64,000 nt of DNA from an uncultured bacterium (GCA_963841935.1 CAWJEP010000001.1:10487-74486), one strand, 5' to 3'; counted from the stretch's first letter, positions 2,989 through 58,312 are shown. Made by a program: numbers and translations. Notes: a model not told the origin generated them from the letters alone.

Positions 2989-3396
2989 TTAAATAAATTC
3001 TATGGTGTCGCCTTTCTTGAGATAGACGTAAGCTTTCTTGCCGCTCGAAGTCTTTCCGATGATTCCGCGAAGATTTCTTTTCTTCGAGCGAATTGTCGTG
3101 ACCGAAACGCGAACCGGAACGACTTTGTAAAGCGCTTCTACCGCCTCGGCAATCTGTTTTGAACCGGCGCCTTTCACGACTTCGAAAGTATAAACTCCCG
3201 ACTGGGACAAAGTTCCGCTTTTTTCCGTGATGTGCGGACGGACAATTACCGCCGCGGCGACTGTGGAAATATTTTTTGGTGCCGAAACCGCCGGCTTGCC
3301 CGCCGTAGCCTTGGCGGAGGCGGGCGACTTTACTTTCGCTTTCTTTTCCACCTTCTCAACCTTATTTTCCGTCTTCTTTTTTCCAAATAGAGCCAT
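2989..3396 (-). CDS. rplW: 50S ribosomal protein L23 with a Lys/Ala-rich N-terminal extension
   Basis: The C-terminal 95 aa match the L23 fold (IRPHITEKS...FEV...A.K.QI..AVE.LY.V.V..V.T). About 40 aa of KKAKVKSPASAK low-complexity sequence precede it. Confidence 0.85.
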   Translation of the reverse strand: MALFGKKKTENKVEKVEKKAKVKSPASAKATAGKPAVSAPKNISTVAAAVIVRPHITEKSGTLSQSGVYTFEVVKGAGSKQIAEAVEALYKVVPVRVSVTTIRSKKRNLRGIIGKTSSGKKAYVYLKKGDTIEFI

Positions 3397-3400
3397 AATA

Positions 3401-4060
3401 TTATTTTTTATTGGAGAAAACTTGGAGCGACGACTCCGGATTTTCGAAAATGACGAAAGTCGAATTGAGAATGTCCAGGGGATTTATATTTCTCGCTTCT
3501 TCGACTTTGACGCTTCCGATGTTTCTGAAGCTTTTTTCGGCCGTTACACTTTTTGATGAAAGGGCGATGACACCGGCGTTTACTTTTTTCTTTGAAAGTC
3601 TCTCGAAGCCTTTGATTTTCGAAAGCGATACGAGAGCGGATTTCGCCTCGGCCGTTTTCGGAGCGGCGAATTTGAAAGAATCGACGAAAAGGACTTCCCC
3701 GTCTTTCCATTTTCGCGAGAGCAAAGTGAAAAGAGCTTTGGTTTTCATTTTCTTGTTCACTTTGCGCTCGTAGTTCTTGTCTTTGCGAGGACCATGGGTC
3801 ACGCCACCACCGACCCACAAAGGCGAACGAGTAGAGCCGTGTCTCGCGCGGCCGGTGCCTTTCTGTCGCCACGGCTTTTTGCCGCCGCCGCGCACTTCGC
3901 CGCGAGTTTTGGCGTGAGCTATCGGTCGGCGAGCGGTCGATTGCATGGAAGTCACGACCTGATGCACGAGGTCGGCGTTCCAAGGCAGACCGAAAATGCT
4001 TTCGGAAAGTTTTATCTTTCCCGATTCCTTACCTTTTATGTTGTAAATAGTTGCTTCCAT
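3401..4060 (-). CDS. rplD: 50S ribosomal protein L4
   Basis: The 219-aa product has the L4/L1e family motifs KTRGEVRGGGKKPWRQKGTGRAR...PLW.GGG..HGP. Confidence 0.9.
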   Translation of the reverse strand: MEATIYNIKGKESGKIKLSESIFGLPWNADLVHQVVTSMQSTARRPIAHAKTRGEVRGGGKKPWRQKGTGRARHGSTRSPLWVGGGVTHGPRKDKNYERKVNKKMKTKALFTLLSRKWKDGEVLFVDSFKFAAPKTAEAKSALVSLSKIKGFERLSKKKVNAGVIALSSKSVTAEKSFRNIGSVKVEEARNINPLDILNSTFVIFENPESSLQVFSNKK

Positions 4061-5173: not shown

Positions 5174-5180
5174 TAGCACA

Positions 5181-5212
5181 AAAAACCGCCCTTGCGGGCG
5201 GTTTTTTGTTTA
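5181..5212. terminator. rho-independent terminator after rpsJ
   Basis: aaaaaaccgccc ttgc gggcggtttttt is a perfect hairpin with A/T runs on both sides. The rpsJ stop codon (5210-5212) abuts it. Confidence 0.65.
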
Positions 5213-6904: not shown

Positions 6905-6940
6905 GAAAGCCCCGCGGCACTTCGTGCCGCGGGGCTTTCA
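6905..6940. terminator. GC-rich hairpin (possible terminator for the small minus-strand ORF)
   Basis: A 12-bp perfect stem (gccccgcggcac / gtgccgcggggc) has a ttcg loop. It lies upstream of tuf and downstream of ORF 6956-7207 on the minus strand. Confidence 0.35.
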
Positions 6941-8222: not shown

Positions 8223-8244
8223 TTTCAAGACAGGTAAAAATTCA

Positions 8245-8282
8245 AACGGCGGTTCACATATAATGCGAACCGCCGTTTTTTC
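8245..8282. terminator. bidirectional rho-independent terminator (ends 7275-8222 and fusA)
   Basis: The hairpin cggcggttc ... gaaccgccg is followed by tttttt, and the reverse orientation is also followed by a T-rich run. Confidence 0.6.
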
Positions 8283-15189: not shown

Positions 15190-15780
15190 ATGCAAAAATT
15201 CGAAGAAAAAAAATTCAATATTCCGGCTTTAAAAGGTATTTCGGCGAAAACAATCGAGGAACATTTGAAGCTTTATAGTGGTTATGTAGCGAACGCCAAT
15301 CTCGTTATGGAAAAAATCGCGACACTCGGCGCAGATCCGGCGAATGCGTACGCCGTGAGCGAAATCCGCAGACGTTTCAGTTTTGAATTCAACGGTATGC
15401 GCAATCATGAAGTTTATTTTTCTTCTTTCGAGGGCGGAGCAAAACCTTTACCTGCCAATTCCCTTCTTAAACAAACGGTTGAAGCTGGGGGAGGAACACT
15501 TGAAGCTGGTATCGCTTATTTCAAATCACTAGCCCTCACTCGCGGTATCGGCTGGGCAATGCTTTGGTATGACCGCAAAGACAAAATGATACTTGCGTCA
15601 TGGGTCGACGAACAGCACCTCGGACAACTCCAAGATTGCACACCCATTCTCGCTCTCGACATGTGGGAACATTCGTTCGTCGCGGACTACCAACCCTCGG
15701 GAAAGAAAAGTTACGTTGAAGATTTTTTCGCCAATCTCAATTGGGAAGTGATCGAGAAGAATTTCCTAAACGCGCGATAA
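15190..15780 (+). CDS. Fe/Mn-family superoxide dismutase-like protein
   Basis: The C-terminal DMWEHSFV motif matches DxWEHAYY. NHEVYF matches NHxxFW. The EEH position corresponds to the N-terminal His ligand. Start chosen at MQKFEE. Confidence 0.6.
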   Translation: MQKFEEKKFNIPALKGISAKTIEEHLKLYSGYVANANLVMEKIATLGADPANAYAVSEIRRRFSFEFNGMRNHEVYFSSFEGGAKPLPANSLLKQTVEAGGGTLEAGIAYFKSLALTRGIGWAMLWYDRKDKMILASWVDEQHLGQLQDCTPILALDMWEHSFVADYQPSGKKSYVEDFFANLNWEVIEKNFLNAR

Positions 15781-17290
15781 AAAATATCATCGCGGCGTAG
15801 ACAATCACAACCGCCGAAAAAGGAAAAGGGATCGCGACTGACGAAAAAGGAATCGCCGAAAATATTTTGGCGACAAATAGCTCGTATGAAGTGAAAAAAT
15901 AAGCAACGACGGCGAACGGAAAGGAGAGAATCGGCGAAATTAGACCGATCACACCTGACAGAAGTCCGAAAAGCATGGTCATGGGCAGTACCGGCAAAAT
16001 TAAAATATTGGCCGGCACGGAAAAAAACGACAGCGAGCCGGTAATATACAAAATATAAGGCAAAACGGCGACTTGCGCCGACAAAGTCGATATAAAAATT
16101 TCCCTAAAACCGAATCTCTCGGGAATTTTCACTAACTTTTTTTCGAAAATGGGCGAAATAAATATAAGGCCGAGAACGGCGAGAATGGAAGCCTGAAAAG
16201 ACGAGTCGAAAATCAAAATCATTGGGTTCCAAAAGACCATCAGGAAAATCGTCAGTGCCAAAGCGCGCACGGCGTCGTGTTTTCTCGCCAAAGCTTTGGA
16301 TAAAAAAGCGAAAAGCGCCATGATGGAGGCGCGAACGACCATGGCCGACGCTCCGGTCATCAAAACAAAAAGAATAATTGAAACCGAAGCGAGAACAAGC
16401 GACGTCCGAAATCCAAATCTCGCAAAAAACCTTCTGACGGACTCGGCAACGATTGCGATGGCGTAGCCGGAGAGGATAACGATGTGAATCGTGCCAACTT
16501 TTCGAAGCATGTCTAGAATATCCTGCGGTACGGAATGTCTTTCTCCCAAAAGAATGGCGTTGACCAAAGATGCGTTCGGCTCATTTATCACGCGGTCAAC
16601 GCTATCGGCGAACGCGTGTTTTATCGAAAGAAGAAAGGATATCGCGGGATTGCCTTTGTTTGACGCGACCAAACTAATAACCGGTTGGTACATTACGGAG
16701 TAGATTCTGTCTTTTTGAAGATATGAAACATAATCGAAAACCTCACCTGTCGCGTCATCAGAAAAATTCCTCGGCGAAACCAATGGGCCGAGAACGGCGA
16801 GCTCGTCGCCGTAATTTCTTTTCGGAAAAAGTCCGGCTTCAATGAGAATATTATTTTCTCCGGAAAGTTTTTTGCCGTTTACCGACTCCACGCGAAAAGT
16901 AATAAGCTGTTTGTCTTGCCTGACATCCGGGTCTTGCGAAATGTAACCGGTGATTTCTATTTTGCCTCTCGCGCCGGAAAGAATCGGGTCCGGAGTTTTT
17001 GAATATGTCTCGTATCGCAAAGCGCCGAGAAAGAAAAATATCAATGAAAGAGAAACGAGCGCGGGAAGTGCGGCAGTTTTTCGCTTGTGCGCTTCGCTCC
17101 GACTTACGCGCTCAAAACTGCCGCACTTCCCGCGCTCTAAATTCGGTCTTCGTTCGAAAATACATACCGCCGCGATTGCCGAAGCTATTAATAATACAAA
17201 AACTAGCAGAAAAATATCGGCGTTCGTGAAAGTTTGAAACGCGATTCCCGCCGCGAAACCTATAACCGCTATATAAATGGCCGCCGCCAT
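15737..17290 (-). CDS. comEC: competence protein ComEC/Rec2 (DUF4131 plus competence domain, polytopic membrane)
   Basis: The 517-aa product has many TM helices with ComEC-core-like segments (...LSGYAIAIVAESVRRFFARFGF...). It carries an in-frame 81-bp palindromic element insertion in the TM2-TM3 loop. Confidence 0.8.
   Translation of the reverse strand: MAAAIYIAVIGFAAGIAFQTFTNADIFLLVFVLLIASAIAAVCIFERRPNLERGKCGSFERVSRSEAHKRKTAALPALVSLSLIFFFLGALRYETYSKTPDPILSGARGKIEITGYISQDPDVRQDKQLITFRVESVNGKKLSGENNILIEAGLFPKRNYGDELAVLGPLVSPRNFSDDATGEVFDYVSYLQKDRIYSVMYQPVISLVASNKGNPAISFLLSIKHAFADSVDRVINEPNASLVNAILLGERHSVPQDILDMLRKVGTIHIVILSGYAIAIVAESVRRFFARFGFRTSLVLASVSIILFVLMTGASAMVVRASIMALFAFLSKALARKHDAVRALALTIFLMVFWNPMILIFDSSFQASILAVLGLIFISPIFEKKLVKIPERFGFREIFISTLSAQVAVLPYILYITGSLSFFSVPANILILPVLPMTMLFGLLSGVIGLISPILSFPFAVVAYFFTSYELFVAKIFSAIPFSSVAIPFPFSAVVIVYAAMIFFIARLGNSSRSLPN
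17057..17137. repeat. RPE/MITE-like palindromic element, copy 1 (24-bp arms plus conserved 33-bp core), in frame inside comEC
   Basis: gagcgcgggaagtgcggcagtttt | TCGCTTGTGCGCTTCGCTCCGACTTACGCGCTC | aaaactgccgcacttcccgcgctc. It totals 81 bp, which is 27 codons. Confidence 0.8.
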
Positions 17291-20223: not shown

Positions 20224-20586
20224 ATGCAAGATTGCGTTTTCTGCAAAATCGTAGCGGGAAAAATACCTTCGGAAAAAATTTACGAGGACAAAGATTTCCT
20301 GGCGTTTATAGATGTGAACCCTCTTTCTCCCGGCCACGCCCTGGTCATTCCGAAAAAACATTATGCGTGGGTCTGGGACGTGCCGAACGCCGGCGATTTT
20401 TTTGAAGTCGCCAAAAAAATCGCCTTGGCGCAGAAAAAAGCTTTTGAAACGGATTTTGTTCTATCGAAAATCGTCGGCGAAGATGTGCCTCACGCCCACA
20501 TTTGGGTTTATCCGGATAAAAACGTTAAAGGCGACAAAAAAGATTTCTCTGGTAACGCAGAAAAGATAAGAAAGTTTTTGAAATAA
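20224..20586 (+). CDS. HIT-family (histidine triad) nucleotide hydrolase
   Basis: CVFCKI...PGHALVIPKKH...HAHIWVYP, carrying the HxHxHxx motif. Confidence 0.85.
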   Translation: MQDCVFCKIVAGKIPSEKIYEDKDFLAFIDVNPLSPGHALVIPKKHYAWVWDVPNAGDFFEVAKKIALAQKKAFETDFVLSKIVGEDVPHAHIWVYPDKNVKGDKKDFSGNAEKIRKFLK

Positions 20587-20620
20587 AAAAGCGGCGCGGG
20601 TTTGGATAACCCGCGCCGCT
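20585..20620. terminator. GC hairpin terminator (strongest for minus-strand gene 20629-21009)
   Basis: The hairpin gcggcgcgggtt tgga taacccgcgccgc is preceded by aaaaaa. Confidence 0.5.
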
Positions 20621-21116: not shown

Positions 21117-22247
21117 TCAAGACTTCAACGCGTCGATCCCCGGCAAGGTGCCGTTCGCCAAAAATTCAATCATCGCGCCGCCGCCGGTCGAAGTAAAAGT
21201 AAATTTGTCGAGCATTCCGGCTTTTGAAACGACGGCGACCGTGTCTCCACCGCCGACGATGGAGCGCGCGCCAGAATCAATGACAGCTTGTCCGAAATCG
21301 ACCGTGCTTTGAGAGAAACCTTTTTCGTAATCGCCGAAAGGTCCGTTCCAAAGAACGAATTTCATTTCTTGGAGAAGGTCAGCAAGCTCGGCGGAGGTTC
21401 TCGGACCGGCGTCGACGATAACATCGGCCGGAGCCACATCTTTTGCCATGCGATCGCCAGAGTCATAAGCGTTTTGAACGATGACATCGGAGGGTATGAT
21501 GAGTTTCGGACTATTGGCAACGCGACGGAGGTTCACATAAACTTTGGAAATTTTCGAGCGACCGACTTCATAGCCTTTTTCTTTAAAAATGTCGTTCGCA
21601 AGCGCTCCGCCGACGAAAATATAGTCGGCGATGTCCAAGAATTTCTCGATGAGAGGAAGTTTTGTCTCGAATTTCGCTCCGGCAAGCGCCAAAAGAAACG
21701 GTCGCGAGGGATTGAAAGCTTCGGAAAGAGCCGCGACTTCTTTTTGGAGCAAAAGTCCGGCGTAGCAAGGTATAAGGCGCGGCACGCCAACGATGGAGGC
21801 GTGGGAGCGATGAGAAACAGAGAAAGCATCGTTGACATAAATGTCGGCCAAAGCCGCCAGAGATTTGGAAAAGTCGAGATTGTTTTCCTCTTCGCCCTTA
21901 TTTCTCCTAACATTTTCGAGCATTATGACATCTCCGGCTTTCATCGCGGCGACGGCTTTCGGCGCCGACAAAATATCAGGAACGAAAGCGGAAATAGTGT
22001 AAAAACTGTTCAAATATTTGGACACGGGGAGAAGCGTGGCGTCGGCGCTATCGTCAATGTGGCTTATGATAATCGTTTTGGCTTTTTTTTCTTTGAGATA
22101 CGCGATCGTCGGCAGAATTCTTTTGATGCGAAAGTCGTCGCGCACGCCGCCGGCGACTATCGGTACATTTAAATCCAGGCGCAGAAGGACTTTTTTGCCT
22201 TCGAGGTCTTTTATATCCTGCAGTTTTTTAAACGAAACGTCAGGCAT
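21117..22247 (-). CDS. pgk: phosphoglycerate kinase
   Basis: The 376-aa product has LLRLDLNVP, ISHIDD and GGGAMIEFL. Confidence 0.95.
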   Translation of the reverse strand: MPDVSFKKLQDIKDLEGKKVLLRLDLNVPIVAGGVRDDFRIKRILPTIAYLKEKKAKTIIISHIDDSADATLLPVSKYLNSFYTISAFVPDILSAPKAVAAMKAGDVIMLENVRRNKGEEENNLDFSKSLAALADIYVNDAFSVSHRSHASIVGVPRLIPCYAGLLLQKEVAALSEAFNPSRPFLLALAGAKFETKLPLIEKFLDIADYIFVGGALANDIFKEKGYEVGRSKISKVYVNLRRVANSPKLIIPSDVIVQNAYDSGDRMAKDVAPADVIVDAGPRTSAELADLLQEMKFVLWNGPFGDYEKGFSQSTVDFGQAVIDSGARSIVGGGDTVAVVSKAGMLDKFTFTSTGGGAMIEFLANGTLPGIDALKS

Positions 22248-22986
22248 TTGCCAGTTTGATTATCTCGGCGAAACGCTTGGGGTCGAGAGATTGGCGACCG
22301 ACCAAAAGTCCGTTTATGCCGCCCTTCAAAAGCATTTCTTTGGCATTTGCGGCGTCGACCGAGCCTCCGTAAAGCACCGGAATTCTCATTGCTTTTTCCT
22401 TCGGCAAAAATTGCGCGCAGGTTTTCTTTATGAAAATCGCCATGGCCCGCATCTCCTCCGGAGACAAAGCCTTGTCATAACTGCCCCCGACGGCCCAGAC
22501 TGGCTCATAAGCTACGATGAATTTTGGAATTTTATTTTTCGCCACAGCTTTCATGACCACGGAAAGTTCTCTGGCTATATCGGAAAAATAATCTCCATCT
22601 TGATCGCGTTTTTTTTCGCCGACGCAGAGGATAGGCACGAGTTTGGCTTCAAGGGCGCGGACGAATTTCTCGGCGACAACCTCGTCCGTGTCGCCCGCGG
22701 CTCTTCGCTCGCTGTGACCGACGATGGCGAAATCCGCGCCCGCGGATTTCGCCATTTTCGCGCTCACTTCTCCAGTGTGCGCGCCGGAAAGATGGACGGA
22801 GACGTCTTGGGCCGCGAAAAAAAGCGAACTTTTTTTCGCGGCCAGTATTGGCAAGAAAACTGCGGGCGGAGCAATGATGACTTTTGCGCCGCGCGCGCGG
22901 GCTACCGCGCGCGCGGCGCCCGTCGCTATCTCTTTCGCCTCTGAAAGCGTCATCGGATTCATTTTCCAATTACCAATGATAAACAT
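22240..22986 (-). CDS. tpiA: triosephosphate isomerase
   Basis: The motifs are GNWKMN, IVGHSERR and YEPVWAVG. Confidence 0.95.
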   Translation of the reverse strand: MFIIGNWKMNPMTLSEAKEIATGAARAVARARGAKVIIAPPAVFLPILAAKKSSLFFAAQDVSVHLSGAHTGEVSAKMAKSAGADFAIVGHSERRAAGDTDEVVAEKFVRALEAKLVPILCVGEKKRDQDGDYFSDIARELSVVMKAVAKNKIPKFIVAYEPVWAVGGSYDKALSPEEMRAMAIFIKKTCAQFLPKEKAMRIPVLYGGSVDAANAKEMLLKGGINGLLVGRQSLDPKRFAEIIKLANA

Positions 22987-28323: not shown

Positions 28324-29721
28324 TTAATATGTGACCACGAAATTATTCACCGGAAAGGCTTCCACGGTATGAATTCCTCCGGCCAAAATCAGGAGTTCGC
28401 TCTCGACATCGACGATTCTCGGTATGCATATAAAATAATCAAAGGTCACGGCGTAATAATTCCATCCGTTTTTCTGTCCGAATAAATGGATGTCGGAAAT
28501 GTTCGCGAGACTGTGTGTCGCGGCCGGCTTCACGAGTGGCTCCTTGGAAACGACAAAAAGAGTGCTCGTGGCATTCACGCGCCAATTGTCACACACAACA
28601 TTGTCAAAAGATATCGGGAAACGATTTGTCGGGTCGCCGGTTTCTTTCGCTATATTTCCTATGGTCACGGGACTTGTCGTGGCGATGTCATAGAAATACA
28701 AATCCCCGATTTTTTCCAAAAATCTCCCCGGCGCGGACGCGTCATAAGTTCCAAGATAAACATTTTGATAAGCTATGGACGTCGTGTCGTAAGAAATGTC
28801 TCCTTCCGTTGAAACAAATACCGGGACTAAAAAACAAATACCCAAAAGCAAAACGGCGGTGGCGCCGAAGACGCGAAAGCGCGAGGCGCCTCTTTCCGCG
28901 AGAAAAAACCATCCGAAATACACGAGTTCCATGCCAAAAACATGTTCAAGATACACCGATACTTGAGTGTGACTTATGGCGCCGAAGGGATAGGCGATAA
29001 TAACGGCGATGGGCGTGACTAGAGAAAGAGCAACGGGGAAAATCCAGCCGCGGAAACTTTTAGGTGCGTAGCCGTAGCACATAACGAGCAGGATGAGAAA
29101 AGCCGGAATAGCTTCGGAGTTCAAAAGTCCTCCGTCGAAAATATTTTTCAAAAAAGAAAGCAGAGCGATGGCGAAAAGTATCTGGAGGCCGAATCTTTTT
29201 TTATTTTTCCCGACAAAATCGAACAGGAGCCATATTCCAAGGATAGACACGGTAAGACATCCGGCAAGTCCGACCCAGCCGACCCATGTCGGCAAAATAT
29301 TGAGGTACGCGAAACCAAAATCGGCTTTTGTCTCGAGCGCGAGCCGAAGCTGGGTCGGAAAAAAAGATGAAACCAGACCGAAAGGAAATTTCAAAACATG
29401 AGTGTGAAAGAAATGCGTCGTAGAAATATCCCTTTCCCCTATCGCTGACAGAACATAGTTCGCCGGAACGGCGAGCATTTTATAAAAGTAGAAAGTTACG
29501 CCAAGACCGAGAAGGAAAATCGCCGTCGAAACGATGAAAAATATATTTTTCAGGGGAAATTTCCGCGCGACAGGCGTTTCGACGGCGATTTTTTTTCGCC
29601 ACGCGATGATATTTACGACAGCCAAAAGCAGAATGGCGAAAAGAAAGAGAAAAACTTTCACGTCACTGCGACCCGCGGCGAAAAGGTCGGTAATAATGTG
29701 CAGAAAGAAGAAATAATTCAT
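28324..29721 (-). CDS. large polytopic membrane protein with a C-terminal extracytoplasmic domain (hypothetical; GT-C glycosyltransferase-like or sorting-enzyme-like)
   Basis: The 465-aa product has 10 or more TM helices followed by a soluble tail of about 150 aa. It is tightly coupled to the flanking genes. Confidence 0.55.
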   Translation of the reverse strand: MNYFFFLHIITDLFAAGRSDVKVFLFLFAILLLAVVNIIAWRKKIAVETPVARKFPLKNIFFIVSTAIFLLGLGVTFYFYKMLAVPANYVLSAIGERDISTTHFFHTHVLKFPFGLVSSFFPTQLRLALETKADFGFAYLNILPTWVGWVGLAGCLTVSILGIWLLFDFVGKNKKRFGLQILFAIALLSFLKNIFDGGLLNSEAIPAFLILLVMCYGYAPKSFRGWIFPVALSLVTPIAVIIAYPFGAISHTQVSVYLEHVFGMELVYFGWFFLAERGASRFRVFGATAVLLLGICFLVPVFVSTEGDISYDTTSIAYQNVYLGTYDASAPGRFLEKIGDLYFYDIATTSPVTIGNIAKETGDPTNRFPISFDNVVCDNWRVNATSTLFVVSKEPLVKPAATHSLANISDIHLFGQKNGWNYYAVTFDYFICIPRIVDVESELLILAGGIHTVEAFPVNNFVVTY

Positions 29722-38132: not shown

Positions 38133-38141
38133 GACAAAAAA

Positions 38142-38214
38142 GCCGCTAGTAAGATATTTTTTCGCTTGTGCGCTTCGCTCCGACTTACGCGCTCAAAAAT
38201 ATCTTACTAGCGGC
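38142..38214. repeat. RPE/MITE-like palindromic element, copy 2 (intergenic, doubles as a terminator)
   Basis: gccgctagtaagatatttt | ttcgcttgtgcgcttcgctccgacttacgcgctc | aaaatatcttactagcggc is followed by tttttg. It is flanked by A5 and T5 runs. Confidence 0.8.
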
Positions 38215-38258
38215 TTTTTGTTTGCCTAAACGGAAATCCTAAGATAAAGTGTTTTTCT

Positions 38259-39284
38259 ATGTCACACAATCATTCATACAAAGTCTCGGTAAAAAAGCTT
38301 CCAAAAAGCCAGCTCGAAATCGAGTCTGAAATTCCCGCGGACGAGTTTTCAGCCCATATCAAAGACGCCGTTGACGAAGCGGTGCGCGAAGCGGAAATAA
38401 AAGGCTTTCGCAAAGGCGCCGCGCCGGAGAAACTCGTCCGCGAGAAAATCGGCGATGACGCGCTTCTTCACGAAGCCGCGAGTGCCGCCATCTCTCACGC
38501 CTACGGCCACATCGTCGAAGCGGAAAAAATAGACGCCATCGGCAGACCGCAAGTGACCATCACGAAAATCGCCGAAGGCAATCCTTTGGGATTTAAATTC
38601 GTCACCGCCGTGGTGCCGGAAATAAAAGATTTCGATTACAAAGAAATCGCCAAAAAAGAAAATAAAAAAGAAAAATCCAAATCGGAAGTTACCGAAAAAG
38701 AATTTGCCGAGACACTTGAAAATGTTTTGAAAAATTATCAGCCGAAGCGACAAAATTGGAAAAAGCTCCGGAACTTTCGGACGAGCTCGTGAAAAAATTC
38801 GGCGAATTTTCTTCGGCCGACGATTTCAAAAAGAAACTTCGCGAACAAATGCTTGCGGAAAAAGAACAAAAGGAAGTGGAGAAAAAACGCGTAGCTCTTA
38901 TAGATGCTTTGGTCTCCGGAGTCTCCATAGAAATTCCGGAAATACTTGGTGCAAAGCGAGCTTGACAGGATGCTTTCGGAAATGAAAAACGACGTTTCAC
39001 GGATGGGACTTTCGTGGACTGACTATCTGAAACACTTGAAGAAAACCGAGGATGATATGAAAAAAGATTGGAACGAAGCCGCGAAAAAGAGAGTGATGCT
39101 CGAACTCATCACCGAACACATAGCCAAGACGGAAAAAATTTCCGCCGACGAGAAAAAAGTTTCGGAGGAAGTAAAACACATTCAAGAACACCACAAAGAC
39201 ATAGACGCCGCGCGCGCCCGTTCGTATTTTGAACACATTTTCCAAAACCAAGCGGTCTTCGAATTTCTAGAGGGACAAAAGTAA
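38259..39284 (+). CDS. tig: trigger factor (short form without a PPIase domain); two apparent frameshifts (about 38740-38756 and about 38948)
   Basis: The N-terminal ribosome-binding domain has GFRKGAAPEKLVREKIG. The middle segment ...KAPELSDELVKKFGEF... and the C-terminal ...VQSELDRMLSEMK... lie in three different frames. The joins sit at an A-run and a GG-run. Confidence 0.75.
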
Positions 39285-40052
39285 AGCTGCTGCCGCAACC
39301 GACGCCGTTTCGGCGCGCAGAGTTTGCTCGCCGAGCGACACAGACGGAATTCTGCGCGCCGAAAAATATTCTTTTTCTTCTTTGCTCCATCCGCCTTCGG
39401 GGCCGATGAAAATAGAAATGGCGCGCAAAACATTTTGCGCCGAGGGAACTTCCGCGCGAGAGTTTTTCTCGCTTGTGCGCTTCGCTCCGACTACGCGCTC
39501 CAAAAACTCTCGCGCGGAAGTTCCCGAGTGGCCTCCAGAAAAATGTTTTGCGCTTCCTTCTAGAACCACAGGATTTTCTGCCTGCTCTAGCGCTAGTTCC
39601 AATTTTTCTGGCTCAAAAATTTCCGGCACTCTTCCCCACCCCGATTGCTCCGCGGCTTCTTTTACTATTTTTTCCTCGCGTTTCAAATCAAAACCGAGTT
39701 TCTCACTTCGCTCCGCGACGATTGGATGAAAACTTGCCGCGCCGAGCTCGGTGGCTTTTTGCAAAACCCATTCAAGTTTGTCTTTTTTTATAAGCGCCGG
39801 ATAGATGTGCAAAGCGACGCTCGGCGCGGCGATCGACGGCGAGCTTTCTTCCACGTGAAAGACGGCGCCGTCCTTCCTAAGAGACGCGAGTGTGGAAACA
39901 TATTCAAATCCGTCCCCGTCGAAAAGTATCACCCGCTCCCCCGCTCCCATCCTGAAAACTTTTCCGAGCTGGTGCGACAGGGCCGGATCGGCGACGACGA
40001 GGTCGGCGCCGACTTTGGCTTTGTTTCTGACGAAAAATCTTTGCAGTTTCAT
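39267..40052 (-). CDS. rsmE: 16S rRNA (uracil1498-N3)-methyltransferase RsmE
   Basis: The N-terminal PUA-like domain plus a SPOUT domain with IGPEGGWS. An in-frame palindromic element lies just upstream of the GPEGG motif. Confidence 0.75.
39444..39525. repeat. RPE/MITE-like palindromic element, copy 3 (24-bp perfect arms), in frame inside rsmE
   Basis: gggaacttccgcgcgagagttttt | ctcgcttgtgcgcttcgctccgac-tacgcgctcc | aaaaactctcgcgcggaagttccc. It encodes ...[32 protein letters not shown]..., lengthening the loop before IGPEGG by about 25 aa. Confidence 0.8.
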
Positions 40053-42392: not shown

Positions 42393-42665
42393 ATGAACAA
42401 AGCAGCTATCGTTGATGCCGTTCACGGCGTCCTCAATACGACCAAAGTTCAGGCGGAGCAGGTCGTAGACAAGGTTTTCGATTCAATCGTCGCCGAGCTC
42501 AAGAAAGGTGGCGAAGTATCGGTTGCCGGCCTCGGTATTTTCTCTGTTAAGACCCGCAAGGCCAGAATGGCACGCAATCCCCGCACGGGAGAAGCCATTT
42601 CCGTTCCGGCTATGAAAGTTCCGAAGTTCCGCGCCGCAAAGGCCCTCAAAGACGCGGTTAAATAG
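42393..42665 (+). CDS. hup: DNA-binding protein HU
   Basis: The 90-aa product reads ...GLGIFSVKTRKARMARNPRTGEAISVPAMKVPKFRAAKALKDAV. Confidence 0.9.
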   Translation: MNKAAIVDAVHGVLNTTKVQAEQVVDKVFDSIVAELKKGGEVSVAGLGIFSVKTRKARMARNPRTGEAISVPAMKVPKFRAAKALKDAVK

Positions 42666-42674
42666 AACAAATAA

Positions 42675-42747
42675 GCCGCAGATAAGGTATTTTCGAGAGC
42701 GTAAGTCGGAGCGAAGCGCACAAACGAGAAAATATCTTATCTGCGGC
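42675..42747. repeat. RPE/MITE-like palindromic element, copy 4 (reverse orientation; terminator for hup)
   Basis: gccgcagataaggtatttt | cgagagcgtaagtcggagcgaagcgcacaaacgag | aaaatatcttatctgcggc is followed by ttttt. The core is the reverse complement of TTGTGCGCTTCGCTCCGACTTACGC. Confidence 0.8.
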
Positions 42748-42768
42748 TTTTTGTTACAATAATTGCCT

Positions 42769-45599: not shown

Positions 45600-45670
45600 T
45601 GCGGGATGGGAGAATCGAACTCCCGACCACAGTTTGGAAAACTGTTGTTATACCATTTAACTAATCCCGC
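45600..45670 (-). tRNA. tRNA-Gly (anticodon UCC)
   Basis: The minus-strand sequence is GCGGGATTAGTTAAATGGTATAACAACAGTTTTCCAAACTGTGGTCGGGAGTTCGATTCTCCCATCCCGCA. It has a 7-bp acceptor stem, a GGGAG/CTCCC T-stem and a TTCGATT T-loop. No encoded CCA. Confidence 0.85.
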
Positions 45671-45737
45671 CTACGCTATCGCTTCGGCGGGCAGGCCCGC
45701 TTGAGCAAAAACACTTTACCACAAGACATCAAAAATC

Positions 45738-46054
45738 TCACTCGCTCTCCCCTTTTGAGAGCCGCACGACTTCGTCGAAATCGTCTTCGGCGGATAATTT
45801 ATTTTTTTTCTCGAATCCGCATTTCACGCACTGCTGAATTATGGAAAAATCCCCTTTCGTTTTGATTACCGAGATCGGTTTCATCATTCCTCCGCACTTT
45901 TCCGCCCGATCACCAGGATTTTTGTCGACATGTTTCGACCAGAGGCAATGCGGACAATGATTTGTGTAACCATTACCGACGACTTCCCTTCCGCAATTCT
46001 CGCAGACGAAATTTTCGACCGTTTTTTGGAATTTTTTCGTGTCCTTTAGCATTT
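45738..46054 (-). CDS. RNHCP-domain zinc-ribbon protein
   Basis: CENCGREVVGNGYTNHCPHC...CVKCG. The start is trimmed to MLKDT because the longer ORF overlaps tRNA-Pro. Confidence 0.55.
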
Positions 46055-46055
46055 T

Positions 46056-46126
46056 TCGGGGCGCCGGGAATCGAACCCGGGCCGCATGATCCCAAATCAT
46101 GAATACTACCTCTATACTACGCCCCG
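46056..46126 (-). tRNA. tRNA-Pro (anticodon UGG)
   Basis: The minus-strand sequence is CGGGGCGTAGTATAGAGGTAGTATTCATGATTTGGGATCATGCGGCCCGGGTTCGATTCCCGGCGCCCCGA. The anticodon stem is CATGA/TCATG and the loop is TTTGGGA. Confidence 0.85.
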
Positions 46127-46177
46127 TGAAACATCATACTAGCACACTCGCCCCGCCGAAGCTTCCGCGGCGGCGGG

Positions 46178-46585
46178 CTACTCGGTAATATTTACTTTTT
46201 CTATCATTCTTACTCGGGCTTTTCTCGTATTTTGGTCTAGTTCAATGGCCAAAATGTTCCAAAAGAAATCCATATCCCGAAAATCAGGCCTTTGGGCGAA
46301 ATATATTTGCGTTACGCGCGAAAGCTTTTTCATTTTGGAGTAAGTCATATTTTCCTCCGGTCTAAAGGTTTCATGTGAAACCTGAATATCCGTTGTTTCA
46401 CGTGAAACACTTTTTACCTCAAAAAAGTGAATTTCATTGCCTTTTCTGGCGACAATATCGATTTCTCCGGCTTTTCTAGTGAAATTCCTTTCGATTACCG
46501 TGAAACCCTTATTTATCAAGTATTTACAGGCAATTTCCTCGCCGATTTCACCTATTTTCTGTGTTTCAGAGGTAAATACTTTCAT
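46178..46585 (-). CDS. YraN/UPF0102 family endonuclease
   Basis: IGEIGEEIACKYL..KGF.VIERNF..K.GEIDIVA.....HFFEVK. The start is at MKVF. The upstream TTG-initiated extension overlaps the palindrome cluster. Confidence 0.65.
   Translation of the reverse strand: MKVFTSETQKIGEIGEEIACKYLINKGFTVIERNFTRKAGEIDIVARKGNEIHFFEVKSVSRETTDIQVSHETFRPEENMTYSKMKKLSRVTQIYFAQRPDFRDMDFFWNILAIELDQNTRKARVRMIEKVNITE
46367..46411. promoter_or_regulatory. pair of GTTTCA-N2-TGAAAC palindromes inside yraN
   Basis: GGTTTCATGTGAAACC (46367-46382) and TGTTTCACGTGAAACA (46395-46410). Confidence 0.4.
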
Positions 46586-46591
46586 TTTGTA

Positions 46592-46622
46592 TGTTTCACG
46601 TGAAAAGTGTTTCAATTGAAAC
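46592..46622. promoter_or_regulatory. pair of GTTTCA-N2-TGAAAC palindromes immediately upstream of the yraN start
   Basis: TGTTTCACGTGAAAAG followed by the perfect GTTTCAATTGAAAC. Confidence 0.4.
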
Positions 46623-46756
46623 TATTTCTCTATATTTCTCCGTAATTATAGGACAAATGTCCTTGATAATGTGATGTCTTTTACACCTAATCCACAATGT
46701 TATCCACAGAAATATAAACAGACGGTGATTCGGAAAATCCGCCGATTTTCAGAGGG

Positions 46757-46827
46757 TGCGGGTAGGGAGAATCGAACTCCCACCTCATCCTTGGCAAGGA
46801 CGTGTCCTACCACTAAACGATACCCGC
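46757..46827 (-). tRNA. tRNA-Gly (anticodon GCC)
   Basis: The minus-strand sequence is GCGGGTATCGTTTAGTGGTAGGACACGTCCTTGCCAAGGATGAGGTGGGAGTTCGATTCTCCCTACCCGCA. Confidence 0.85.
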
Positions 46828-46875
46828 GTGAAAGCAATTCTAAACGAAATAACCAAAAACTCCAAATCCTATTTG

Positions 46876-46947
46876 TGCGCCCGGAGGGACTTGAACCCCC
46901 AATATCGGTTCCGAAGACCGGTGTGATATCCATTTCACTACGGGCGC
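46876..46947 (-). tRNA. tRNA-Arg (anticodon UCG as read; one C-A mismatch in the anticodon stem)
   Basis: The minus-strand sequence is GCGCCCGTAGTGAAATGGATATCACACCGGTCTTCGGAACCGATATTGGGGGTTCAAGTCCCTCCGGGCGCA. Confidence 0.75.
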
Positions 46948-49982: not shown

Positions 49983-50903
49983 TTATGATTTTTTGTTGTG
50001 AAATTTTTTGTGGACGTCGCGCAGATGTTTGTCGGTGACATGGGTATAAATCTGCGTCGTCGTAATGCTCGAATGGCCAAGGAGGGTCTGGACGCTTCTA
50101 ATATCGGCGCCGTTACTGAGCAAATCCGTGGCGAAAGAATGGCGGATAACATGGGGCGTGACTTTTTTGGAAACGATACCGGCTTTGGTCGCGTAATATT
50201 TCACGATGCGCTCGACACTGCGACGGGAAAGAGGCATCGATTCGCCTTTGAATTTTTTCTCCGTCGCGATTTTCACGAACAAAGCGTCATCGACATCGTC
50301 TCGTTTCGCCAAATAAGCTTTAACGGCCTTTTTCGCGTCGTCGGAAAGGAAGACCACGCGGACTTTTTCACCCTTTCCTCTAATAGAAAACTCGTCTCGG
50401 GTAAAATCGATGTCTCTGGTGAGGGAACAGAGCTCGGCAACGCGCAGTCCGGTGGAAAAAAATAGCTCGAGGATGGCTTTGTCGCGGAGAGACTTCATAT
50501 CGGAGCCGTTCGGAGCGTCGAGAAGCCGACGAAGCTCTTCTGACGTGATGAAATCGATCTGCCTGTCGGAAACTTTAGCAAGCTCAATGCGGTCGGAAGG
50601 AAGGGAGGTGATGTTTTGTCTGGCCAAATATTTCAGAAACGAGCGCAGGGCTATCAAATAATAATTTTGGGTTTTCTTTTTGAGTGTCTCGCCGGTGGCT
50701 CGCAGGTTGCCGGCTTTCTGACGGTTGAGAAAGAGGCGAAAATCACGGACGGCCTCATCCGTGATTTTCGCCGGATCCTCGCTCTTCAAAAATCCGAAAA
50801 ACCGCGTGAGATATCGGTCGTAATTTTCGATGGTCTTGAGCGACCGACCTTTTTCTATTTCGGTATATTCCAGAAATCGTCTTTTAAGTTCGGATAGTTT
50901 CAT
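49983..50903 (-). CDS. xerC: tyrosine recombinase XerC/XerD-like
   Basis: The C-terminus reads [39 protein letters not shown], giving the R..H..R..Y catalytic tetrad. The start is trimmed to [10 protein letters not shown]. The upstream ORF extension overlaps rpsO and is not credible. Confidence 0.8.
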
Positions 50904-56392: not shown

Positions 56393-58312
56393 GTGGAAAA
56401 CTTAAGCGATAAACAAAAGGAGGCTGTCGAATACACTGAAGGGCCACTTTTGGTCATTGCCGGCGCCGGAGCGGGAAAAACTCGCGTAATTACGGAAAGA
56501 ATCGCTTATCTCATCAAAAAAAAGAATGTCCTACCGGAAAAAATCCTCGCCGTAACGTTCACAAACAAAGCGGCAACGGAAATGCGCGAACGGGTGTTAA
56601 AAATCCTCAAAGAAAAGTCCGGATACTTAAATGCCGCGCCTTTCATCGGAACTTTTCACGGACTTTGCTCTTTTATCTTGCGAAACGACGCCGAAGCCGC
56701 GGGATTGAGGAAAACTTTCGTTATTTTCGACCGAGACGATTCAAAACGGCTCATTCGAGACGCAATGAGAGAAATCGACCCGGACATGCCGAAGCGTCTC
56801 GAGCCCGGAGCGGCACTCGGAATAATTTCCAGGGAAAAAGACACGGGAATGGACGCGAGAACCTTCCTTGAAAGCCGAAAAGACGAGTTTGGGAAAAATA
56901 TCGGCGTCATTTGGGAAAAATACGAAAGAAAACTTCGCGAAGAAAACGCTTTGGACTTCGACGACTTGCTCGTGCGAGCGGTAAAACTTCTAAGGGGCAA
57001 CGAGGTTGTAAGAAAAAAATATCTTTCACGATTCGAATACATAGAAGTCGACGAATACCACGACACCAACGCCATTCAATACGAATTGGTGAAACTTTTG
57101 GCGGGCGAAAAGAAAAACATAATGGTTGTAGGCGACGTAGACCAATCGATTTACAGTTGGAGAGGAGCGGACATAAAGAACTTAATCAATTTCGAGCGCG
57201 ACTTCGCCGGTGCCAAGACAGTGCTCCTCGAAGAAAACTATCGCTCGAGCAAAACCATTCTCGACGCCGCGAACGCCGTCATAGTGAAAAACAAGAACCG
57301 CTTCGACAAAACTTTGTTCACGAAAGCTTCAAGTGGCGAGAAAATTTCCGTCTATGAAGCTTACGACGAAACGGAAGAAGCAAACTTTATTACAGAAAAA
57401 GTCCGTGAGGCGATTTCTTCCGGCGTAAGCTCGGAAGAAATCGCCGTCCTTTATCGCGCCAATTTCCAATCGCGCGCCCTGGAAGAAGCTTTTCTCTCAA
57501 AACAAATCCCGCACATCGTTCTCGGCACCAGATTCTTTGAAAGAAAAGAGGTCAAAGATATTATTTCTTACATCCGCGCGGCGCAAAGTCCCGAGTCGCT
57601 TTCCGACGTAAAACGGGTGATAAACTTGCCGCCGCGCGGCATAGGCAAAGTTTCCATAATGAAAATATTTTCGGAACAGGAAAATCTACTTTCCGGTTCG
57701 CAAAGAGACTCGTGGAATAAATTTAAATCGTCGCTGAAAAACATTGACGAAGAAATAAAAAAATCTCCGCCATCAAAAGTCGTGAGGTTTGTTTTCGAAA
57801 AAAGCGGTATCAAGGAAATGCTGAAAAATCAGGGCGACGAAGGGTTGGAAAGAATGGAAAACATCGAAGAATTGGGGGCTTTCGCCGCGAGATACGACGG
57901 TTTGCCGTGTCCGGAAGGCATAGCGAAACTTTTGGAGGATGCCGCGCTCGCGACTGACCAAGATTCGCTCGATGGAGACCCGAAAGGAGTGAGACTCTCG
58001 ACCGTTCACGCTTCAAAAGGCCTCGAGTTCGACGTTGTTTTCATTACCGGACTCGAACAAGACCTTTTTCCGCACAAGTCCACGGAAGGCAAAAGTAAGG
58101 GTCGGGACGAAGAAGAAGAACGACGGCTTTTTTACGTGGCGATAACGCGCGCCAGAAAAAAAATATATCTTTCACACGCTTCCACCAGAATGGTTTTCGG
58201 TTCGCGACAATGGAACGCGCCGTCGGAATTTCTTTTTGACGTGCCGGAAGATTTGATCGAGCAGGAAGAAAAAGTCGAAGGCGGAGGAAAAGTGATATAT
58301 TTCGACATATGA
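56393..58312 (+). CDS. pcrA: ATP-dependent DNA helicase PcrA/UvrD family
   Basis: GAGAGKTRVITERIAYLI and the other SF1 motifs. Confidence 0.9.
   Translation: MENLSDKQKEAVEYTEGPLLVIAGAGAGKTRVITERIAYLIKKKNVLPEKILAVTFTNKAATEMRERVLKILKEKSGYLNAAPFIGTFHGLCSFILRNDAEAAGLRKTFVIFDRDDSKRLIRDAMREIDPDMPKRLEPGAALGIISREKDTGMDARTFLESRKDEFGKNIGVIWEKYERKLREENALDFDDLLVRAVKLLRGNEVVRKKYLSRFEYIEVDEYHDTNAIQYELVKLLAGEKKNIMVVGDVDQSIYSWRGADIKNLINFERDFAGAKTVLLEENYRSSKTILDAANAVIVKNKNRFDKTLFTKASSGEKISVYEAYDETEEANFITEKVREAISSGVSSEEIAVLYRANFQSRALEEAFLSKQIPHIVLGTRFFERKEVKDIISYIRAAQSPESLSDVKRVINLPPRGIGKVSIMKIFSEQENLLSGSQRDSWNKFKSSLKNIDEEIKKSPPSKVVRFVFEKSGIKEMLKNQGDEGLERMENIEELGAFAARYDGLPCPEGIAKLLEDAALATDQDSLDGDPKGVRLSTVHASKGLEFDVVFITGLEQDLFPHKSTEGKSKGRDEEEERRLFYVAITRARKKIYLSHASTRMVFGSRQWNAPSEFLFDVPEDLIEQEEKVEGGGKVIYFDI

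Follow-up and report, generated by a model that had tools for sequence, protein, structure and literature searches.

An in-frame hairpin repeat with a conserved apical core in the rsmE gene of an uncultured bacterium

The DNA analysed here, called the window throughout, is a stretch of 64,000 nucleotides from an uncultured bacterium (GCA_963841935.1 CAWJEP010000001.1:10487-74486). One of its minus-strand ORFs matches the Pfam profile Methyltrans_RNA (PF04452) at 5.7e-35, and also PUA_4 (PF20260); by its sequence it is RsmE, with a PUA-like N domain and a SPOUT knot domain. RsmE is the SPOUT methyltransferase responsible for m3U1498 in 16S rRNA. The invariant residues of the GPEGG and LRAETA motifs are kept (G217-P-E-G-G221 and R246-x-E-T-A250), and RsmE structures in the PDB match the window protein at E values of 4e-23 or weaker.

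The gene contains a palindrome. A first-pass annotation had described an 82-bp copy of a palindromic element with 24-bp perfect arms, placed just before the catalytic IGPEGG motif in an ORF that stays open. All of this was confirmed: the arms are 24 nt long, 100% complementary and separated by 34 nt, the site precedes IGPEGG in the 261-aa ORF, and the ORF list returns the open frame and the peptide as quoted. There is no stop anywhere across the element, and 82 nt is not a multiple of 3. No inverted repeat like 39444-39467/39502-39525 is expected in shuffled sequence. Folded as RNA, either strand of the hairpin reaches −50 to −53 kcal/mol (z about −7 to −8.5).

Around this hairpin lies an outer inverted pair, which the annotation had also reported; it is real, a perfect match of 14 nt, with ends 1–2 nt away from those first given. 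The pair overlaps the ends of a shell that surrounds the inner stem, whose consensus is TTTT[G/T]CGCCGAGGGA to one side of the stem and TCCCGAGTGGCYTCCAGRAAAA to the opposite side. At two unrelated loci, L003/L093 and L073 (L numbers are our handles for the sequences compared), this shell also encloses core hairpins, whose inner stems differ. Because of this recurrence, the 114-nt composite of shell, stem and core behaves as one unit. The first-pass picture of a copy nested within an older palindrome is thus correct as to the nesting, but the "older palindrome" appears from these comparisons to be largely part of the element rather than simply an older resident of the rsmE site. Two separate insertions may have produced the nesting, or the stem may have grown outwards. 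Nested or compound stems also occur elsewhere, for example in L007, where the version is 166 nt long and has an outer repeat of 20 nt.

Table 1. Features of the rsmE element, its sister copies and other hairpins (window coordinates, except where an L number is given)
Feature	Position	Strand	Basis or remark
rsmE ORF, 261 aa, intact host gene	39267..40052	-	ORF list, Pfam PF04452 + PF20260, AlphaFold2
114-nt composite (shell + stem + core)	39433..39546	-	flank-projected boundaries vs L016, L079
Left arm, 24-bp perfect stem	39444..39467	.	inverted-repeat search
Right arm, 24-bp perfect stem	39502..39525	.	inverted-repeat search
Conserved apical core, reads GGAGCGCGTAGTCGGAGCGAAGCGCACAAGCGAG on - strand, 11 residues translated	39468..39501	-	common to 4 window copies and ~80 elsewhere
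Outer inverted repeat, left arm GCGCAAAACATTTT	39423..39436	.	14 nt, 100%
Outer inverted repeat, right arm AAAATGTTTTGCGC	39540..39553	.	14 nt, 100%
Shell, left part TTTTGCGCCGAGGGA	39433..39447	.	bracket common to L003/L093, L073
Shell, right part TCCCGAGTGGCCTCCAGAAAAATGT	39522..39546	.	bracket common to L003/L093, L073
Sister copy, 81 nt, 24-nt arms, in frame in ComEC-like ORF 15737..17290 (-)	17057..17137	-	covariance model, 92 bits
Sister copy, 83 nt, 25-nt arms, intergenic between 68-aa ORF and trigger factor	38137..38219	-	covariance model, 90 bits
Sister copy, 83 nt, intergenic after 90-aa ORF 42393..42665	42670..42752	+	covariance model, 85 bits
Core-less hairpins in tpiA 22240..22986 (-)	22724-22755, 22810-22843, 22886-22919		
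Core-less hairpin in UvrD/PcrA-like helicase 56393..58312 (+)	57409-57445		
Further core-less hairpins	50735-50772, 20392-20424, 20590-20620, 6905-6939, 5178-5209, 8244-8278		
Variant-B core occurrences	L015 ~3015-3045, ~3680-3720; L017 769-857; L019 1748-1836, ~3040-3110; L036/L069 downstream of indel		

The composite replaces about 18 nt of insert-free orthologs. Alignment to these gives a net gain of 96 nt, or 32 codons, and not the roughly 25 residues first estimated. The comparison of orthologs that the first-pass annotation had proposed found the insert absent from the close relatives P0005, P0008, P0010 and P0012; distant RsmE sequences all lack it too, rather than showing the extra residues conserved in unrelated bacteria. 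PDB structures of RsmE, which align only to residues 2-160 and 200-258, offer no counterpart to the insert. In the RsmE alignment the site lies between VLEGG and the following 10-residue segment, where the DNA of an empty ortholog reads GTTTTC/AAAAATG across the junction, a small T4-C-A5 quasi-palindrome. RsmE of close relatives (65-87% identity) is anywhere between 221 and 293 aa long, an example of how hairpin inserts inflate and diversify protein lengths.

Surface exposure of the insert, also raised at first pass, was modelled with AlphaFold2 from 113 sequences. Mean pLDDT was 89.8 and pTM 0.86; pLDDT was at least 90 for the fold and 60-74 at residues ~168-210, where the insert forms a low-confidence excursion with an isolated helix at 180-195. 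The catalytic motifs are all in place, and the ~32 extra residues are hydrophilic. Our best explanation is that the insert sits in a variable surface loop of the SPOUT domain, protruding from an intact fold.

Every ORF-internal copy in the data set is stop-free and in frame. A search for coding copies that break their ORF yielded none; the apparent breaks were intergenic copies or artefacts of frame choice. Among orthologs the core is translated in differing frames and orientations. With copies in frame and orthologs' frames and orientations differing, we take the insert to be translated and tolerated, neither a conserved module nor removed, and tolerance rather than use by the protein is likewise the best explanation. 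A related effect was seen in gene calls: the core hairpin in the rsmE-clpP spacer stays open in frame and so distorts start-codon annotation, giving P0006, P0009, P0011 and P0013 spurious RsmE N-terminal extensions (L015 3001-3130; L019 1120-1250).

Four hairpins of the window are identical in their central 32-33 nt, TCGCTTGTGCGCTTCGCTCCGACT(T)ACGCGCTC, and differ in their arms; across the family the conserved apical core, likewise 32-33 nt, is GAGCGCGTA(A)GTCGGAGCGAAGCGCACAAGCGA. The unit of repetition had first been taken to be the palindrome, but the 24-bp arms are not common to the copies, only the 33-nt apical core is. A covariance model of the family found exactly these four copies in the window at 81-92 bits (81.5 for the rsmE copy); its other matches were generic hairpins at no more than 29 bits. 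As the first-pass annotation had it, the rsmE copy is the second in-frame insertion: the sister copy at 17057-17137 also lies in frame and encodes a 13-residue stretch of its ComEC-like host protein. The ortholog of that copy in L010 (5168-5248) has two arm differences, both compensated on the opposite arm. At orthologs of the 38137 site the core is flipped (L014, L016), replaced by a second core type, variant B (L019), or absent (L015), and orthologs of the 42670 site in L016 and L049 are plain terminator-like hairpins.

When species-representative genomes were scanned for the exact core, one MAG, labelled Candidatus Saccharibacteria, had 11 copies, and a metagenome scan found the core at 82 loci. 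The resulting set comprises 106 copies; 79 of these are distinct and have arms of 8 nt or more, and by their flanks they define 41 sites. In viral contigs the core was not found, save for one chance match without arms. Rfam matches to the element were miRNA-like hairpins at no more than 31 bits, below their thresholds of 63-114. ORFs of at least 90 aa span 35 of the 79 distinct copies, and about 25 copies lie well inside ORFs of at least 240 aa, so that a third to nearly half are intragenic, depending on the criterion. Intergenic copies occupy the 3' ends of genes and have A-runs and T-runs (A5/T5) on their flanks; the rsmE and ComEC copies have no flanking T-run.

The core itself varies little. 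In GTC[GG/TT]AGCGAAG there is a GG/TT dinucleotide polymorphism, seen for example between the window 39444 copy and L013, and a 1-nt A indel; all four combinations occur across sites. The TT state makes CTT/AAG complementary, which looks like quasipalindrome correction, and at the same positions the L018 core has CAA...TTG. The variant-B core, CTCGAAAACTCGCTTCGCTCAAACATTCTCG, occurs in the same kinds of hairpins and has only GAGCGAAGCG in common with the main core; a search of the window for it was negative. In L019 the GCGAAGC centre of variant B is expanded to GCTTCCG-TCTT-CGGAAGC.

The stems are, by contrast with the core, site-specific: arms are 8-30 nt long, with 0.39 identity between sites. 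Pairing within them is nevertheless almost complete. Only 41 of 1629 arm pairs are non-complementary (97.5% paired). In a 50-copy alignment pre-selected for arms no shorter than 18 nt, pairing extends to 99% of cells and covariation is seen at 19/19 positions, each of which shows all four Watson-Crick pairs (shuffles, 57%). A weak inner ATTTTY/RAAAAT tendency is the only arm feature common to copies.

The few mismatches are not symmetrical. With the core written TCGCTTG..., arm mismatches are A·C/C·A in 30 cases and G·T/T·G in 3 (p=1.4e-6); on the other strand, whose core reads GAGCGCGTAAGTCGGAGCGAAGCGCACAAGCGA, the mismatches are therefore wobble pairs. Sorted by host ORF direction the bias is 8:0 one way and 5:1 the other, it is present in all intergenic configurations, and neighbouring copies on one contig are of mixed orientation. 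Because the bias holds across host strands and contig neighbourhoods, transcription or replication direction does not explain it. The wobble-side strand carries the invariant GCGAAGC, which is also the part in common with variant B. Mini-hairpins of the GCGNAGC type are exceptionally stable as DNA and far less so as RNA. The GCGNAGC/GCGAAGC motif is present at single-strand DNA initiation signals (PMC13037366), a likeness that we treat as a lead only. Nearest-neighbour folding of both strands with DNA and RNA parameters gave no meaningful strand difference, and the core alone has no significant predicted structure. When mismatches were polarised with orthologs only 11 were informative, so selection and mutation bias are inseparable here and the asymmetry could reflect mutation bias instead of selection.

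The rsmE site was compared at the DNA level in seven orthologs, with L016 and L079 as empty reference alleles. The window, L013 and L060 carry the composite of shell, 24-bp stem and core (+96 nt). L014 and L018 have a smaller insert (+48 nt) with the core oriented as in the window and different arms; L017 and L019 have +69 nt with a variant-B core on the sense strand, to which L019 adds a small hairpin inside the core. The seventh ortholog, L015, has a variant-B core with decayed arms at the site and no flank-projected length. Relatives thus differ in arms, core orientation and core variant, in agreement with a site that was recurrently hit or remodelled; this much of the earlier proposal of repeated insertion at a hairpin-forming site stands, with the correction that the outer palindrome largely belongs to the element and is not simply a prior resident. 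The idea that one arm derives from native sequence and its partner from an inverted copy of it was tested against the empty ortholog L016; the similarities were ambiguous, owing to the arm's internal symmetry. Length bookkeeping (core plus one arm vs the whole hairpin as a multiple of 3) gave no discrimination.

Turnover is also evident beyond the rsmE site. In the rsmE-clpP spacer, a copy is present in L013, L065, L015 and L019 and missing from the window, L014, L017 and L018. L069 and L036 differ by a clean 78-nt indel between flanks that are 95-97% identical. No target-site duplication is visible at this indel; there is a possible GA/GA beside the inner rsmE hairpin, where boundaries are uncertain. 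L013 and L065 carry different core subtypes on identical arms, in flanks 92-97% identical, and core-less plain hairpins stand at orthologous sites in L015, L016, L041 and L033. Mean identity over 25 orthologous pairs was 0.90 for the core, 0.75 for the flanks and 0.58 for the arms. The core was flipped in 24 of 66 orthologous pairs, and in about half of the 25-pair set. The elements of the window and L013 agree at 96.5% of positions, and the two rsmE genes at 63% of third codon positions (p=4e-13). As judged from these alignments, conservation lies at the nucleotide and not the peptide level. Taken as sequence comparisons, these results support the description of the rsmE insertion as a lineage-specific, in-frame, repeated hairpin element before IGPEGG.

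Perfect hairpins without a core (arm at least 12, loop at most 12) number 11 in the window vs 0 in shuffles. The four that were checked, three in tpiA and one in the helicase gene, are all inside coding sequence of normal length, and the TPI palindromes are translated, as AAKKSSLFFAA and MAKSAGADFAI. This suggests palindrome formation genome-wide in coding DNA as a general tendency of the lineage. The loops of two core-less hairpins (aagtcgc, gcgtaagct) are similar to the core segment GCGTAAGTCGG. rsmE itself has a further hairpin in its conserved 3' part (FSARRI ... TLRAET), at 39308-39364, with 17-nt arms (94%); of the orthologs, L017 shares it, with a single compensated C/G change, and five others lack it.

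Some further features of the window may be recorded. At 2085-2128 there is a perfect palindrome of 44 nt with no spacer (AAAAACCGGGGCTTTTCGGAAA/TTTCCGAAAAGCCCCGGTTTTT), which looks like an A5/T5-flanked bidirectional terminator or a core-less form of the intergenic copies. The hairpin at 29511-29597 has 23-nt arms (91%) and a 41-nt loop containing GGGGAAATTTCCGCGCGACAGG, similar to the stem of the rsmE copy. Trigger factor (38259-39284) is split by apparent 1-nt indels into ORFs 38259..38792, 38756..38965 and 38946..39284; it is intact (~340 aa) in L013, L014, L016 and L019 and split also in L015, and either assembly error or pseudogenisation would account for this. Four tRNA genes, the only Rfam matches in the window at gathering score, cluster on the minus strand at 45600-46947, and within the cluster lies a 29-nt, 83% inverted repeat (46395-46423 / 46594-46622).

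Given the repetition, insertion polymorphism, in-frame read-through, covarying stems and conserved, often inverted core demonstrated by these comparisons, we consider it probable that the rsmE feature is a copy of a lineage-specific, selfish, non-autonomous hairpin (foldback) repeat whose core is its recognition module. The 114-nt composite would have inserted in an RsmE surface loop, at the T-run/A-run quasi-palindrome before the strand leading into IGPEGG. Template switching at inverted repeats during replication would keep its stems perfect, lengthen them and reshape them where they stand, and would also invert the spacer and give flipped cores. The core would be read by a putative sequence-specific factor that mobilises or maintains the element, probably as single-stranded nucleic acid on the GCGAAGC strand, where mismatches are wobbles.

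Template switching at inverted repeats homogenises and lengthens arms and reversibly inverts the spacer; in yeast REG2 it extended arms from 5 to 16 bp (PMC8604942; PMC7202029). These properties account for stems that are perfect but specific to their site, for compound stems and for cores that flip, and the family behaves as they lead one to expect, with 97.5% of arm pairs complementary despite an ortholog arm identity of 0.58, and 24/66 cores flipped. They do not explain a 33-nt spacer conserved at 41 sites, and for this a sequence-specific reader is required. The spacers in the yeast template-switch reports are 2-5 nt, vs 33 nt in the rsmE family (PMC8604942; PMC7202029). It also counts against template switching that the stems of the window and L013 look more conserved than neutral drift with arm homogenisation predicts, and against MITE-like copying that arms are not common to different sites. 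Nor did any transposase, nuclease or other partner gene come to light in the analysis. A more speculative and rather unlikely version of the process treats the 33-nt core as a mobile "apical cassette": some strand-specific factor would recognise it on single-stranded DNA, on the strand with the GCGAAGC mini-hairpin, and would relocate or reinstall the tip only. The tip would move between hairpin apexes or small palindromic centres, and stems would then be built from local sequence by fold-back or template-switch synthesis. If true, this would be a transposition-like process that makes inverted, not direct, target duplications and by which translated hairpins would have been scattered across the proteome of a Patescibacteria-like lineage.

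That the core is so strongly conserved between species, at dozens of loci, could just as well mean a host function, and the explanation we rank second, after a selfish repeat, is a host-serving structured motif, RNA or single-stranded DNA, spread and kept by selection and acting on the rsmE mRNA or DNA. We regard it as possible, though clearly less probable. Such a motif could be a site of RNA processing or stability (a long double-stranded substrate whose loop binds a protein, for example), could terminate transcription in an unconventional way, or could act as a signal for priming or for DNA uptake. A conserved unpaired core and shell, covarying helices and mismatches that are wobbles on one strand only form the classical pattern of structured RNA; core conservation is far above that of the flanks (0.90 vs 0.75), the element is conserved beyond codon position 3 of rsmE, intergenic copies sit at gene 3' ends between A-runs and T-runs, and the GCGAAGC mini-hairpin is known at single-strand DNA initiation signals (PMC13037366). 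Yet the constrained strand is independent of the direction of host or neighbour transcription, the core is flipped in about half of orthologous pairs, and copies are gained and lost between close relatives. Rfam offers no matching family, a 33-nt loop is unsuited to intrinsic terminators, and selection on each of dozens of copies, even in unrelated proteins, is hard to imagine.

Three other explanations fare much worse. An adaptive protein module, in which the extra residues form a new functional surface helix on RsmE, could draw on the predicted helix at residues 180-195 and on the ORF being open in all relatives. It is very improbable nonetheless, with a pLDDT of only 60-74, insert peptides that are wholly different among orthologs in frame, orientation and length, conservation at the nucleotide rather than the peptide level, and a core that is also translated in unrelated proteins and present between genes. 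Removal or skipping at the RNA level, as an intron-like hairpin or by translational bypass, would give a protein without the insert. Bypassed hairpin inserts are known in T4 gene 60 and in the yeast mitochondrial byps, and a very stable hairpin (−50 kcal/mol) in a coding region invites the comparison; but all coding copies are in frame and stop-free, which a removed element would not need to be, and no ribozyme or intron family in Rfam matches, so we give this reading very little credence. Finally, an artefact of the assembly or the library, a chimeric hairpin or adapter for instance, would likewise show constant sequence between inverted, local-looking sequence, and the frameshifted trigger factor suggests some assembly errors in the window. 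This is effectively refuted by L013 (ENA) and L060 (JGI), independent assemblies from different sources and assemblers that carry the window's composite at the rsmE site; orthologous copies have moreover diverged with compensated changes, and JGI, ENA, NCBI and Logan data have copies at dozens of sites. The selfish hairpin repeat thus remains the favoured reading. The rsmE family could serve as a natural system for asking how template switching reshapes coding sequence, what reads a conserved hairpin loop on one strand, and how a protein tolerates hairpin-encoded inserts of 16-38 codons beside a catalytic knot.

Several known systems bear comparison. Intrinsic terminators have a GC-rich stem, a loop of 3-8 nt and a 3' T-run; the rsmE-family loop is 32-34 nt, and a terminator scan called none of these hairpins, which it cannot call because of the loop size. 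TIGR arrays were rejected as a match, being tandem arrays where the rsmE family consists of dispersed single hairpins. Integron attC sites are alike in combining variable sequence with a conserved hairpin structure and in using one specific single strand. They have conserved outer boxes, a variable tip and cassette arrays beside an integrase, none of which was seen for the rsmE family. REP/BIME/REPIN sequences with their RAYT enzymes are likewise abundant short palindromes that often lie at the 3' ends of genes; their proposed mode of action is as single-stranded hairpins read by a strand-specific enzyme. They are extragenic, with a conserved stem, a GTAG/CGTC head and a variable loop, whereas in the rsmE family a third to nearly half of copies are intragenic, stems are variable and the loop is conserved. 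MITEs such as Correia/nemis of Neisseria are short, non-autonomous, hairpin-forming and multi-copy, show presence/absence polymorphism and may lie in transcripts, as here; they feature conserved terminal inverted repeats matching a parent IS, and target-site duplications, while the terminal arms of the rsmE family are variable and a parent IS was not seen. Template-switch remodelling (quasipalindrome correction) matches the stems and flips of the family in arm homogenisation, extension and reversible spacer inversion, but it is a mutational mechanism and not an element, and its reported spacers are a few nucleotides.

To our knowledge no MITE, REP or RPE family has an invariant tip with free, perfectly paired stems. 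Literature searches found no such layout in any of these families, and no earlier account of such an element turned up in targeted full-text searches; on the strength of those searches, a family of invariant-tip hairpin repeats appears to be previously undescribed. The closest parallel is with RPEs, small palindromic repeats of a reduced-genome lineage that are found between genes and in frame in many protein-coding genes, and that are translated and apparently tolerated in surface regions. The rsmE family is also an in-frame translated palindrome, read through in rsmE, in the ComEC-like gene and in some 25-35 other ORF-internal copies. RPE copies are alike in sequence along their whole length. 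This description sets the rsmE family apart: its copies are alike only in the 33-nt tip (with the shell in some), their stems are site-specific (0.39 identity) and their tip flips, and record labels place them in a Patescibacteria-like lineage. Its noteworthy traits are an inverted pattern of conservation, an asymmetry between strands and a wide range of in-frame insertions. If our favoured reading is correct, selfish palindromes translated in essential proteins, as in Rickettsia, extend to a very different lineage with reduced genomes.
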